64,000 bases of DNA, from NCBI GenBank assembly GCA_045631645.1, contig JAZQVC010000038.1, positions 1,856 through 65,855 of the forward strand, given 5' to 3'. The notes under the pieces were generated by a model. It was not told the origin of the DNA, did not search any database, and saw nothing but the letters and a program-made list of their open reading frames with translations. Made by a program: the position numbers and the translations under genes. Below, piece by piece: positions 13,415-17,140 of the stretch. Numbering within the stretch: position 1 is the stretch's first letter; every line of letters starts with the position of its first letter. This stretch comes from Oscillospiraceae bacterium (lineage in GTDB: Bacteria; Bacillota; Clostridia; Oscillospirales; Oscillospiraceae).

Positions 13415-13664
13415 AAAAAAGTCCCCGGAAATCCGGGGACGGAATATACCGCGGTACCACCCTGGTTGCGGATTATAAATCCGCCACTTTTAGAGTCTTA
13501 TAAAACTCATATTGCTCTTACGCGGCTTCACGGGAGGCTCTACTAACCTTTCGGTTTTCTGCTCTCCGACTCCGGAGCGACAAGTTTCGGAAACAAACGC
13601 AATCTGCTTTCACCGACCGCAGACTCTCTGATGCGTCATAAATCCAACTCTCTCCATCATTGCC
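13415..13664 (-). promoter_or_regulatory. T-box leader 1 (tRNA-sensing transcription attenuator)
   Basis: Minus-strand RNA shows GGC-AAUGAU-GGAG (K-turn), AGAGU, the CAGAGAG AG-bulge, the GGUGAAAGC distal loop, the conserved T-box AACCAGGGUGGUACCGCGG (13449-13467) and the terminator GUCCCCGGAUUUCCGGGGAC + U6. Confidence 0.85.
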
Positions 13665-13698
13665 TTTAGTGTATTAAATTGATAAATAACTTTAAAAA

Positions 13699-13742: not shown

Positions 13743-14429
13743 TCAAAGGCTTTCTATAAGCGCAGGTATTTCATCAAGACTCTTGACTACAAACTCGGGA
13801 ACGATGTCCTCTCTGCCCTGCTTACCACTGGGATTAAACCAACAGGTATGGATTCCAACGTTGAGACCGCCCTTGATATCACTTGTGAGACTATCGCCGA
13901 TTATTATCATCTCACTCTTCTCATAAGGAGGCATCTGGGCGAAGCATTTATCGAAAAACTCTACACGGGGTTTATCAAATCCAACACGCTGAGAAATAAA
14001 TATTTCCTCAAAGAAATGACCTATGTCTGCGCTTTTAAGTCTGGGCACCTGAACGGATTCATTTCCGTTAGTGACCAAATAAAGCTTATATTTTCCATAG
14101 AGGGACTCAAGAAATTCAACAGCACCGGGAATGAAATAGTGTCCTATACCCAGATTGGTATTATAAAGCTGCTGAGTGGCGGCGCTGTCTCCCTCTACTC
14201 CAAGTGCCTCAAAAAGTCTGTCAAAACGATATACAAGGACCTGCTCTCTTGTAAGCTCTCCGCGTTCAAGCATCTCCCAGTGGCGCTTATTTATTTCGCT
14301 ATAAAGACTAATGGTCTCTTCATTAGGCTCAATTCCCACTTCGCGAAAGGTTTTCCGGATTGCAACATGTTCTGCCTTGGTGAAATCAAGCAAGGTATCA
14401 TCGCTATCAAGCAAAACCGCTTTAATCAT
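13743..14429 (-). CDS. HAD-superfamily hydrolase, YjjG-like nucleotidase subfamily
   Basis: DSDDT motif I (LLDSDDTLLDF), TNG motif II and GDS..SDI motif IV. 228 aa. Confidence 0.8.
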   Translation of the reverse strand: MIKAVLLDSDDTLLDFTKAEHVAIRKTFREVGIEPNEETISLYSEINKRHWEMLERGELTREQVLVYRFDRLFEALGVEGDSAATQQLYNTNLGIGHYFIPGAVEFLESLYGKYKLYLVTNGNESVQVPRLKSADIGHFFEEIFISQRVGFDKPRVEFFDKCFAQMPPYEKSEMIIIGDSLTSDIKGGLNVGIHTCWFNPSGKQGREDIVPEFVVKSLDEIPALIESL

Positions 14430-14484
14430 ATATTTTCTCCTTGTGTAAATGGGGCGAACAAAAGGTTCGCCCCATAAATTTTGA

Positions 14485-16791
14485 TTAGAGTTTGTTTCTT
14501 ATGATCTTACCGCTGATGGTCTTGGGAAGTTCATCTCTGAACTCAACAATTCTGGGATACTTATAAGGAGCAGTGCGCTTTTTGACGTATTCCTGAATCT
14601 CTTTGGCAAGCTCATCACTTGGCTGAGTACCCTTTACAAGGGTGATGCAGGCCTTTACAACCTGTCCGCGAATTTCATCGGGAGCTGCGCAAACGCCGCA
14701 TTCAAGAACATAGGGAAGTTCCATGATAACGGACTCGATCTCGAAAGGTCCGATGCGATAGCCGGAGGATTTGATAACATCATCAGCGCGTCCGACATAA
14801 TAGAAATATCCGTCCTCATCGCGCCAAGCGAGGTCACCGGTGTGGTAATAATCATCGTGCCAGCTATTATGTGTTGCATCAGGAGCATTGAAATAGCCCT
14901 TGAAGAGACCGCATGGAGCGCCATCGCCGGTGTAAATTACAATTTCGCCGGTTTCACCGTCGCCCACAAGTTCGCCATCGAGGTTCATAAGCTTAACATC
15001 ATACATGGGATTGGCCTTACCCATAGAACCAAGTTTGGGTCTTGTTCCAACAAAGTTACCGATAGTGAGGGTGGTTTCGGTCTGTCCAAATGCTTCCATA
15101 ATAGTAAGACCAGTTGCTTCCTTGAAACGGTTGAAAACTTCGGGGTTAAGAGCCTCGCCGGCGGTAGTGGCATGCTTGATGGAGCTAAGATCGTACTTGC
15201 TGAGATCTTCCTTGATGAAGAAACGGTACATAGTGGGAGGTGCGCAGAAGCTGGTTATGCCGTATTTAGCAAACATAGGCATAATGTCATCTGCTGCGAA
15301 TCTATCAAAGTCATATACAAAGGTTGCTCCACCGCACATCCACTGTCCATAGAGTTTGCCCCAAAGAGCCTTACCCCAACCGGTTTCAGAAATTGTGAAA
15401 TGAACGCCGTTGGGATCGATATTATGCCAGAAACGGGCAGTTACATAGTGTCCGATGGGATATCTGTAGCTATGGTCAACAGCCTTGGGATAGCCGGAAG
15501 TTCCGGAAGAGAAAAGCATCAGCATAGTGTCATCGCCACAGGGACTATCCTCGGTGCGGCTGAAACGGCTGGAATACATATCATATTCATCGTCAAAGCT
15601 GTGCCATCCTTCGCGAGTGCCGCCTGCAATAACCTTAAGACGGACACTGGGGCAGCGTTCCATTGCCTTCTCTGCTTCAACAGAGCTTGTTCCGAAGGCG
15701 CTGCAAACAACTGCAGAGACATTTGCGGCATTGAAGCGATATTCGAAGTCTTTTTCAACAAGCTGGTCGGTTGCAGGTATTGCAATAGCGCCAAGCTTAT
15801 GCAGACCAACAATGATGGGCCAGAATTCCCAGTTACGGCGGAGAACAAGCATTACGCGCTCGCCTTTCTTTATACCAAGAGCACGGAAATAGTTGGCTGC
15901 TCGTGCGCTCATCTTCTTCATCTGGAGGAAGCTGAAGCGGCGCTCATTCTTCTCGCGATCGATATGTATCATTGCAAGGCGATCAGGTTCGCGCTCTGCA
16001 ATGGCATCAACAACATCAAAGGCAAAGTTGAAGCTATCAGTGTTGGAAAACTTGATGCCAACGGGAGTTCCTTTTGCGTTCACCTCAGCAGTGATGAACT
16101 TATCCATGTAGTTGGGGAATTCCTTGACCTGAGGCAGTTCAATTGCTTCGGCCGCCTTAACGGCAGAAGCGTTAACCATCTTTCCATGGCTCCATATAAG
16201 TTCTTCATCTTCATCAGGAAGAACGATGGCGCAGAAAACGCAGTCAGAACCTCCAACAGCAATCATGCCGTGAGGAGTTGAGGAGTTATAGAAGATGCTG
16301 TCGCCTGGAGCAAGAACTTCGGTGTGTTCTCCTATGCGAACCTTGAGGGAGCCTTCAATGACAATGTCGAACTCCTGACCTGCATGAGTATCCTGCTCGA
16401 TAGGCTGAGACTGCTGTGCCTCGGAATACTCATAACGAACCCAATAAGGGTCGGCCTTGCGGTTTTTGAACATGGGAGCAAGACTCTGAATAGTAATTCC
16501 CTGCTCTCTTGCAGTGAGCTGTCCGTCTCCGCGTCGGGTAACGGTATAGCCGCTGAGGCGAGGAGCACTGCCGCGAAGCAGCTCCATCATCTCAACATCA
16601 AAAAGCTCTGCACATTTATGAATATAACTAAAGGGCAGGTCTGCCTTTGCATTTTCGTAAAGCTCACATTCAGCGAGGGAGAAGCCGGTAAGCTCTGCCA
16701 TCTGCTCAATAGAGTAGCCGCAGTCAAGTCGCAGGGACTTAATTCGCAGCGCAACCTCCATCATAAGCATTCCACTGTTTGTAGTAGCCAT
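14485..16791 (-). CDS. Fusion protein: XRE-type HTH + cupin + AMP-forming (medium-chain-type) acyl-CoA ligase, paralog 2
   Basis: Start reassigned to MATTNSG (ATG at 16791, SD GGAGG 8 nt upstream), because the 872-aa tracked ORF runs through the T-box leader. Same three-domain layout and ligase motifs as paralog 1: FSSGTSGYPK, GQTET, YHTGD, SSGYRIGPFEIES, SGKIIRNKL. Confidence 0.9.
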   Translation of the reverse strand: MATTNSGMLMMEVALRIKSLRLDCGYSIEQMAELTGFSLAECELYENAKADLPFSYIHKCAELFDVEMMELLRGSAPRLSGYTVTRRGDGQLTAREQGITIQSLAPMFKNRKADPYWVRYEYSEAQQSQPIEQDTHAGQEFDIVIEGSLKVRIGEHTEVLAPGDSIFYNSSTPHGMIAVGGSDCVFCAIVLPDEDEELIWSHGKMVNASAVKAAEAIELPQVKEFPNYMDKFITAEVNAKGTPVGIKFSNTDSFNFAFDVVDAIAEREPDRLAMIHIDREKNERRFSFLQMKKMSARAANYFRALGIKKGERVMLVLRRNWEFWPIIVGLHKLGAIAIPATDQLVEKDFEYRFNAANVSAVVCSAFGTSSVEAEKAMERCPSVRLKVIAGGTREGWHSFDDEYDMYSSRFSRTEDSPCGDDTMLMLFSSGTSGYPKAVDHSYRYPIGHYVTARFWHNIDPNGVHFTISETGWGKALWGKLYGQWMCGGATFVYDFDRFAADDIMPMFAKYGITSFCAPPTMYRFFIKEDLSKYDLSSIKHATTAGEALNPEVFNRFKEATGLTIMEAFGQTETTLTIGNFVGTRPKLGSMGKANPMYDVKLMNLDGELVGDGETGEIVIYTGDGAPCGLFKGYFNAPDATHNSWHDDYYHTGDLAWRDEDGYFYYVGRADDVIKSSGYRIGPFEIESVIMELPYVLECGVCAAPDEIRGQVVKACITLVKGTQPSDELAKEIQEYVKKRTAPYKYPRIVEFRDELPKTISGKIIRNKL

Positions 16792-16828
16792 AAAATCGCC
16801 TCCAGAAAATAATGTGAGATGCGGAGAT

Positions 16829-17101
16829 AAAATAAAAACCCGCCTCAAAGATACAAGACCTTGAGACGAGCTAAACATTAACCCGCGGTACCACTCAAAT
16901 TGCGATTTGAAAAATCGCCACTCATCGGACTCTGTCAAGCCCTTGGCATTAACGCAGCCTTCACGTGGACTCTTACCCGATTTTACCCGCTCGGAATCCC
17001 GACTCGGAAGTGATGGACATATTGGCGTCTTCGTCATCCGCTTGCAGCAAAACGCGGACTCTCTGTGTCGGAAGGACATCCATGTCGTCTTCGTCATTGT
17101 C
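16829..17101 (-). promoter_or_regulatory. T-box leader 2 (tRNA-sensing transcription attenuator)
   Basis: Minus-strand RNA shows GAC-AAUGAC-GAAG (K-turn), the CAGAGAG AG-bulge, the conserved T-box AAUUUGAGUGGUACCGCGGG (16882-16901) and a terminator hairpin CGUCUCAAGG/CUUUGAGGCG + GGUUUUUAUUUU. Confidence 0.85.
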
Positions 17102-17111
17102 ATTTGAAGAT

Positions 17112-17140
17112 ATTAAAGCACTTACATTATTTTTTGTCAA
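17112..17140 (-). promoter_or_regulatory. Putative sigma-A promoter for T-box leader 2
   Basis: Minus strand TTGACA-17 nt-TTTAAT just upstream of Stem I. Confidence 0.45.

Follow-up and report, generated by a model that had tools for sequence, protein, structure and literature searches.

How does a riboswitch leader that carries an exact internal repeat fold, and which tRNA does it read? The question is raised by a minus-strand leader (17106–16827) in a 64-kb stretch of Oscillospiraceae DNA (contig JAZQVC010000038.1; the whole stretch is referred to as the window), located upstream of a gene for a fusion of a helix-turn-helix (HTH) domain, a cupin and an acyl-CoA synthetase. An earlier interpretation made from the letters alone—the sequence-only reading—had proposed a T-box with an isoleucine specifier and, on the strength of a 12-nt repeat, two competing forms of its Stem I. 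We conclude, with a probability of roughly 80%, that the leader is a transcriptional T-box of the common long-Stem-I/Stem II/pseudoknot/Stem III type that is specific for tRNA-Ile(GAU). It is an ordinary Ile T-box, and the repeat is most likely an evolutionary by-product.

The Rfam T-box model RF00230 matched the minus strand at ~17106–16827 with 84.4 bits (E = 1e-18 for the 801-nt stretch searched), and the alignment spans model positions 1–219 of 219 without truncation. All T-box modules—base helix, kink-turn (K-turn), specifier loop, AG bulge, distal helix and loop, Stem II, IIA hairpin, Stem III and T-box sequence—are aligned by the covariance model (CM), which bears out the earlier claim of a T-box leader. 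The K-turn register proposed at that time, GAC/AAUGAC/GAAG facing CUUC/CGA/GUC, is also the one picked by the Rfam CM, with AC:GU paired at the base; at the sequence level, this K-turn/GA motif (GAC-AAU-GA-C-GAAG with CUUC-C-GA-GUC) is invariant in the genus of the window. Likewise invariant in all eight species of that genus is the T-box sequence AAUUUGAGUGGUACCGCG, which holds the bulge UGGUACC and, within it, the UGGU (16893–16890) predicted to pair with the tRNA 3′ ACCA. Downstream, the terminator stem is followed by UUUUUAUUUU, and its 5′ arm includes the 3′ strand of the antiterminator, rendering the two structures mutually exclusive.

The CM alignment likewise agrees with the sequence-only reading on the specifier, giving AUC both here (plus-strand GAT) and in nine outgroup leaders. 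In the RNA, the codon is followed by the stacking purine A17011 and then by CUUC-CGA-GUC. We assembled 49 distinct orthologous leaders from rumen and gut metagenome-assembled genomes (MAGs) of Oscillospiraceae, Lachnospiraceae and Ruminococcaceae, using a pattern that left the five bases before the closing helix unconstrained. AUC was present in 49/49 of these leaders, with variable neighbors on the 5′ side (C in 23, U in 22, A in two, G in two) and on the 3′ side (A in 39, C in nine, G in one). AGAGA and the codon lie 45 nt apart here and 40–46 nt apart in 47 of the 49 leaders, and the helix directly above the specifier loop covaries (GACAU:AUGUC versus GACAG:CUGUC).

Overlapping triplets in the CAUCA loop, together with the missing register-fixing S-turn, could also be taken to place the specifier in another register, as CAU (His), UCA (Ser) or CCA (Pro). 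However, invariance across the 49 leaders is limited to A, U and C at positions −4 to −2, and a constant AUC between variable flanks speaks strongly against these registers. Moreover, the CM gives AUC, the target enzyme resembles a 2-methylbutyrate ligase, and the leaders of a paralogous gene have GUC or GUA in the same slot (GUA being aligned there by the CM in one paralog leader), which together make a different codon scarcely credible. This paralog sits in tandem with the ligase gene, an arrangement that is conserved in the genus of the window and more widely across the order; in the 12 loci that span both genes, each copy has a T-box in front of it, and further loci show a T-box before the ortholog.

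As to the cognate tRNA, the UGGU of the bulge predicts A73, as had been pointed out from the sequence. The tRNA-Ile(GAU) of two complete relatives indeed carries A73-CCA (3′ ends ...GAGCCC-A-CCA in G033 and ...GGGCCC-A-CCA in G016), and one of the two shares the same Ile leader. These tRNAs were recovered with a loose, gapped tRNA-Ile pattern; a 40-nt pattern searched in 41 relatives had matched tRNA-Val(CAC) alone.

The regulated gene starts at ATG 16791, with a GGAGG (16803–16799) seven bases 5′ of it. Among NCBIfam models, its 768-aa product best matches MbcS, a branched-acid ligase, below the cut-off of that model. The best solved relative of the ligase domain is 3ETC (E = 9e-187), the MacsMa enzyme of Methanosarcina acetivorans, which prefers 2-methylbutyrate as substrate (PMC10455477). 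Residue 473 is Gly in 31/31 Ile-type and Ala in 11/11 Val-type enzymes in our alignment, the types being the two paralog clades—a split that is consistent with a difference in substrate size, although not proof of it. A four-subunit 2-oxoacid:ferredoxin oxidoreductase operon is encoded divergently from the leader. Judged by its relatives, the enzyme is probably 2-methylbutyrate-activating.

In the mechanism that we propose, nascent Stem I would offer its AUC codon to the GAU anticodon and its distal platform to the elbow of the tRNA. The 3′ ACCA of an uncharged tRNA-Ile would then pair with the UGGU bulge and stabilize the antiterminator, whereupon RNA polymerase would pass the terminator (16872–16837) and proceed into the HTH–cupin–acyl-CoA synthetase gene; charged tRNA-Ile would be unable to stabilize the antiterminator, and transcription would stop in the leader. 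The enzyme would most likely activate 2-methylbutyrate for reductive carboxylation to the keto acid of isoleucine, a step that the divergently encoded oxidoreductase would carry out. Set beside its Val twin, the Ile leader would provide regulatory evidence for the roles of two otherwise uncharacterized HTH–cupin–acyl-CoA synthetases, one of them predicted to activate 2-methylbutyrate on the way to isoleucine and its counterpart isobutyrate on the way to valine. This would tie genes and a regulator to a rumen pathway that physiology has made known. Among the papers searched, we found none that ties T-boxes to acyl-CoA synthetases or to branched-acid reductive carboxylation.

The leader fits the transcriptional T-box class, whose features and mechanism have been reviewed (PMC7583486). 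With the transcriptional T-boxes of Bacillota (RF00230; for example, Bacillus ileS and ilv-leu) it shares the K-turn, a specifier loop with codon plus purine, the AG bulge, distal loop, Stem II, pseudoknot and Stem III, as well as an antiterminator with a UGGN bulge that competes with an intrinsic terminator; like the Ile-specific ileS and ilv-leu leaders of Bacillus, it displays the Ile codon AUC. It differs from this class of Bacillota T-boxes in its target, an HTH–cupin–acyl-CoA synthetase and neither a transporter, a tRNA synthetase nor a classical biosynthesis operon. Further differences are a compact specifier loop (2 nt/5 nt) that lacks the AGUA/GAA S-turn, a score under the Rfam gathering threshold, and a repeat in Stem I that is the genus' own. 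A second point of reference is the translational ileS T-boxes of actinobacteria with an ultrashort Stem I (PDB 6UFM, 6UFG; PMC7583486). These are likewise Ile-specific, present their codon without an S-turn in Stem I and have a Stem II S-turn available to clamp the codon–anticodon duplex. In contrast to them, the leader in the window keeps a long Stem I with its distal platform and uses a terminator instead of sequestering a ribosome-binding site.

That leaves the repeat. As the sequence-only reading had reported, the 64-kb window holds exactly two instances of ATGACGAAGACG (RNA sense), both of them on the minus strand in the leader (Table 1). In the following, A1 and A2 denote the two repeat copies, B1 and B2 the two copies of CUUCCGA (the second at 17004–17010 of the minus strand), and the canonical fold is A1:B2 plus B1:A2. 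The first copy is part of the ordinary T-box structure: it holds the bulged strand AAU-GA-C of the basal K-turn (GA motif), whose partner is C-GA of the 3′ strand, as it is in other T-boxes, and its UGACGAAGA is kept in nearly all of the 49 leaders. Both strands reappear in inverted form beneath the AG bulge, where they differ from a basal K-turn in lacking the defining 3-nt bulge and canonical stem. Counting matches with at most one mismatch, shuffled sequences gave an expectation of 0.18, and one of 100 shuffles reached two. The repeat pair can be extended to 15 nt at 93% identity, with a spacing of 60 nt, and, when one half of the leader is aligned with the other (28 columns), the score is 28, as compared with a shuffle mean of 12.6 (standard deviation 2.0) and 0/500 shuffles reaching 28. 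These figures are to be read with the caveat that a 7–8-nt repeat is expected by chance in a 250-nt leader, and that the improbable 12-nt version is limited to one lineage and was picked post hoc.

We asked which Stem I fold is supported by an alignment of the eight species of the genus (mean column identity, 88%). The long Stem I has 96.7% of its cells paired (RNAalifold and pair counts), and five of its pairs have changed on both sides, four of them in the helix formed by copy 2. Column 78 (the last G of the copy 2 GAAG) is A in three of the eight species, compensated by a C-to-U change at its canonical partner, column 33; in the alternative hairpin, this A would face the invariant C98 unpaired. 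No compensatory changes in favor of the alternative fold were found on this alignment. With pairs enforced, the leader in the window reaches −21.5 kcal/mol in the canonical and −16.3 kcal/mol in the alternative fold, and the canonical fold is favored in 8/8 species, by 3.4–9.8 kcal/mol. Such model energies argue against a switch, short of excluding one. Thus, of the claim that CUUC-CGA-GUC has two alternative 5′ partners, the pairing potential stands—both partners can pair—but a functional choice between them does not, as compensation favors the long Stem I alone. Nor would the short hairpin bury the specifier, as had been suggested: AUC would sit in its 18-nt hairpin loop. The long canonical Stem I is the best explanation of the functional conformer.

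A bistable Stem I was considered as an alternative. With AUGACGAAG and CUUCCGA both duplicated, the RNA might form either the long Stem I or two short hairpins (A1:B1 and A2:B2), and the short form or the first-formed hairpin would delay or gate tRNA binding, adding a kinetic layer to the response. The module is duplicated on both strands, all four helices are possible in five of the genomes (G000—the assembly of the window—and G004, G005, G001 and G006), the half-to-half self-similarity exceeds that of all 500 shuffles, and A1:B1 is transcribed first and folds at −4.9 kcal/mol. We nevertheless regard bistability as improbable: the alternative fold is the weaker one in every species by the margin given above, its pairs lack compensation (pair 78–98 being broken in the three species in which the canonical partner is compensated), A2:B2 on its own (4 bp closing an 18-nt loop) is marginal, and 41 other leaders controlling the same gene have no repeat. 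The nascent hairpin, moreover, is not more stable than those of outgroup leaders. A kinetic trap by nascent A1:B1 was rejected on this ground, its −4.9 kcal/mol lying inside the outgroup range of −2.1 to −11.3 kcal/mol.

The distribution of the repeat gives no support to a functional choice either. Rather than being conserved in orthologs, copy 2 is missing in all 41 other distinct leaders, among them those of the closest outgroups (85–87% protein identity), and it decays within the genus: it matches copy 1 at 12/12 positions in G000, G004 and G005, at 11 in G006, ten in G001, eight in G002 and seven in G007 and G008. In the protein tree, the eight species make up four lineages in a basal polytomy; the full 12/12 repeat is thus the state of a single lineage, and the 12-nt identity may be either ancestral and decaying or derived. 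Within copy 2, the AUGACGA core is invariant in the genus, whereas the 3′ half is variable and covaries with columns 29–36. Tandem duplication of a 60-nt unit was considered as the origin and rejected, for Stem I length and the AGAGA-to-codon distance equal those of the outgroups; the middle of Stem I was consequently replaced, not inserted. The likeness of B1 and B2, in turn, follows from their base pairing with A2 and A1, respectively. The leaders of the window's genus have a mid Stem I that was remodeled to copy the stem base, which we see in none of the 41 others. The best explanation is that copy 2 is the 3′ strand of a fast-evolving mid helix of Stem I that came to resemble copy 1 in one lineage. 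There is no sign of the repeat acting as a second switch, and we infer that it has no function of its own. More generally, a repeat that looks statistically striking within a structured RNA can have arisen as a by-product of the way a helix evolves in one lineage, which calls for caution in interpreting such features.

An observation from a different family is worth recording here. In a Lachnospiraceae ortholog (L075:181–300), an insertion of ~15 nt in distal Stem I starts with CUGACGAAGG, a second and apparently independent partial copy of the K-turn/helix strand.

Because the regulated protein has an XRE-type HTH and the 12-bp copies lie 60 bp apart within the transcribed leader, we also considered that they might act at the DNA level, as direct-repeat operators through which the encoded HTH domain would autoregulate its gene by a roadblock in the leader. 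Copy 1, however, is fully accounted for by RNA structure and is kept in genomes that lack copy 2, the decay of copy 2 within the genus shows compensatory changes of the RNA type, and no repeat of this kind occurs in the paralogous leader 1, whose gene encodes a protein of the same architecture. That XRE regulators bind, as a rule, to inverted repeats further speaks against this idea. A role as DNA operators is therefore very improbable.

Several observations weigh against the reading of the leader as an ordinary tRNA-Ile T-box with an inert repeat. Its 84.4 bits fall below the 93-bit Rfam gathering score, as do the scores of 8/8 leaders of the window's genus (67.6–84.4 bits; including L013–L019), whereas orthologous leaders of other genera reach 94–110 bits and exceed it. 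A scan at the gathering threshold accordingly misses this leader and reports only the one at 13432–13669 in the window, so that a permissive scan was needed; routine Rfam annotation will overlook the riboswitch in this genus. Next, neither tRNA-Ile(GAU) nor the 16S 3′ end was found in the assembly of the window itself (51 contigs, completeness 96.6%), indicating that the rRNA operon with its spacer tRNAs is unassembled; A73 is therefore taken from the relatives. Then there is thermodynamics: the unconstrained minimum free energy structure (−22.1 kcal/mol) corresponds to neither fold and is not T-box-like, and the energy of Stem I is no better than that of shuffled sequences (z = 0.87), with nearest-neighbor energies leaving out K-turns, T-loops, the tRNA and co-transcriptional kinetics. 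Finally, drift alone leaves both the 12-nt identity and the half-to-half self-similarity (0/500 shuffles) statistically unexplained, and neither the AUGACGA core of copy 2 nor its partner CCGAC varies in any of the eight species, which makes a function of the core possible, for example as a tandem G-A motif.

The compact specifier loop (AC on the 5′ side at 17087–17088, CAUCA on the 3′ side within 17011–17020), without the usual AGUA/GAA S-turn, belongs among these points as well. It is common to the whole ortholog family (5′ AC, 3′ C/U-AUC-A), in the outgroup leaders the CM aligns the AGUA positions as deletions, and Stem II retains an S-turn-like loop. The S-turn is said to accommodate a bulky modification of base 37 that is carried by tRNA-Ile (PMC7583486). 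Other T-boxes of this genome (alaS) likewise have no S-turn in Stem I, and since both the alaS T-box and the actinobacterial ileS class do without it, its absence is variation inside the T-box family, the S-turn being accessory and not defining. A similar verdict applies to the distal loop, which had been described as less canonical than that of the other leader in the window. The element comprises the AG bulge AGAGA and a 12-nt loop with UGCUG, and GCUG does replace the consensus GGUG. Yet this is a common variant and no defect, given that it recurs in at least four other T-boxes of the genome, including a 147-bit valS leader, and in most orthologs.

The invariant core led us to weigh a second GA-type motif in Stem I. 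In this scenario, GAUGACG of copy 2 and the opposite CCGAC would form a K-turn-like element with tandem sheared G-A pairs beneath the AG bulge—the basal K-turn motif used twice. Such a module would be specific to the genus and would fix the bend or hinge in Stem I or be bound by an L7Ae-type protein. Base by base, the inner strands match the non-canonical stem found in the basal K-turn (C-G, C.C, G.A, A.G), the core and its partner show no substitution in any of the eight species next to a variable helix, and Lachnospiraceae orthologs have a purine-rich GGAGUAC/GAAGG loop at the equivalent place. The inner copy departs from a classical K-turn, which needs a 3-nt bulge and a canonical stem: it has no such bulge, it is directly adjoined by the distal helix, and the 8-nt AG bulge lies on the strand opposite. 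In addition, a register with three Watson–Crick pairs and one A.A mismatch is equally possible and is roughly the choice of the CM. The invariance may also be a mere lack of divergence among eight close species (at the 88% mean column identity noted above), and invariant columns cannot show covariation. On balance, we consider such an inner motif unlikely, if the least unlikely of the alternatives.

A last alternative follows from the comparison with actinobacteria. Besides its long form, Stem I might adopt a second state, a 3′ mini-Stem I (the hypothetical A2:B2 hairpin) consisting of a K-turn-like base, GAAG:CUUC, and AUC at the 3′ edge of the terminal loop. It would resemble the ultrashort Stem I of ileS T-boxes in actinobacteria and could still clamp tRNA-Ile by means of Stem II, although the short hairpin is predicted here as a minor conformer only. 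We deem this two-state arrangement rather improbable. If it did exist, the repeats with their 60-nt spacing would lend themselves readily to a slippage deletion by which the short form becomes fixed, and the leader would be a visible intermediate in the conversion of long-Stem-I T-boxes to ultrashort ones.

The architecture of the long-Stem-I leader is compiled in Table 1. Transcription is predicted to start near A17105, and the Rfam match begins at 17106. The putative promoter (TTGACA-17-TG-n-TTTAAT) was not listed by our promoter scan, which demands an A at position 2 of the −10 element. In the Stem IIA/B region, the GGC of the hairpin loop could pair with a GCC downstream, a candidate pseudoknot that was read by eye.

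Table 1 Features of the Ile T-box leader and its gene (window coordinates; RNA-sense sequences)
Feature	Position	Strand	Basis
Probable sigma-70 promoter: TTGACA (17140–17135), 17-nt spacer, TG-n-TTTAAT	17112–17140	−	read from sequence, predicted
Promoter −10 element TTTAAT	17117–17112	−	read from sequence, predicted
Stem I: base helix GAC/GUC, K-turn AAUGAC/CGA, helix GAAG/CUUC, specifier loop AC/CAUCA, mid helices, AG bulge, distal helix and loop	17001–17101	−	CM alignment, RNAalifold, pair counts on 8 species
Repeat copy 1 (A1), AUGACGAAGACG: K-turn UGA, GAAG helix strand, 5′ side of specifier loop	17086–17097	−	exact match; invariant in genus
First copy of CUUCCGA (B1): 5′ strand of mid Stem I, pairs with repeat copy 2	17068–17074	−	sequence; columns 33–36 pair with 75–78
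AG bulge AGAGA	17060–17064	−	CM alignment to AGAGA consensus
Distal helix GUCCGC/GCGGAU and 12-nt distal loop GUUUUGCUGCAA (tRNA-elbow platform)	17036–17059	−	CM; helix invariant in 8 species
Repeat copy 2 (A2), AUGACGAAGACG: last two bases of distal helix and 3′ strand of mid Stem I	17026–17037	−	exact match
Specifier codon AUC (Ile)	17012–17014	−	CM model positions 90–92; 49/49 distinct orthologous leaders
3′ strand of Stem I base, CUUC-CGA-GUC (helix, K-turn GA, base helix)	17001–17010	−	sequence, CM, pair counts
Stem II with S-turn-like internal loop CCGAG/GGGUAAG	16967–16999	−	CM alignment to GAA...AGUA consensus
Stem IIA/B pseudoknot region, hairpin CGU-GAAGGCU-GCG	16945–16965	−	hairpin by CM alignment
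Stem III GCGAUUU/AAAUCGC	16902–16918	−	CM alignment
Antiterminator: helices UGAG/CUCA and GCGGG/CUCGU around the T-box bulge	16862–16897	−	CM; invariant in 8 species
T-box bulge UGGUACC, 7 nt	16893–16887	−	sequence, CM
Intrinsic terminator: 14-pair stem (16872–16837) and U tract	16827–16872	−	terminator scan
Regulated gene, 768 aa: HTH_3, Cupin_2, AMP-binding acyl-CoA synthetase	14485–16791	−	translation, Pfam, NCBIfam

Further observations concern the regulated gene and its product. Its reading frame stays open for 104 codons 5′ of the real start, from an ATG at 17103 inside the T-box (14485–17103, minus strand), and the same holds for relatives, whose open frames measure 774–808 aa as compared with the 768-aa protein. 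With an ATG inside the leader, gene callers may annotate an over-long protein that spans the riboswitch. As to the protein itself, 12 alignment columns perfectly split the 31 Ile-type from the 11 Val-type fusion proteins. Nine of the 12 fall within the N-terminal HTH/cupin module (residues 53, 55, 59, 67, 72, 96, 99, 116 and 120; residues 53–120 of this protein, P0003, correspond to ~16632–16432 of the window, minus strand) and three within the ligase domain (331, 473 and 476), so the cupin module may also be specialized for the Ile or the Val branch.

Full-length HTH–cupin–acyl-CoA synthetase fusions with 43–46% identity are also encoded by the archaea Methanothrix and Methanocrinis (L103–L133); the Stem I pattern had no match 5′ of these fusions. 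One Bacteroidales MAG includes a 1.7-kb contig (L085) whose protein is 85% identical to the Oscillospiraceae ligase; its placement there is probably a binning error. Finally, downstream of the ligase gene, an 11-pair GC-rich palindromic hairpin (14449–14475) lies between the stop of the ligase at 14485 and the start of a HAD hydrolase at 14429.

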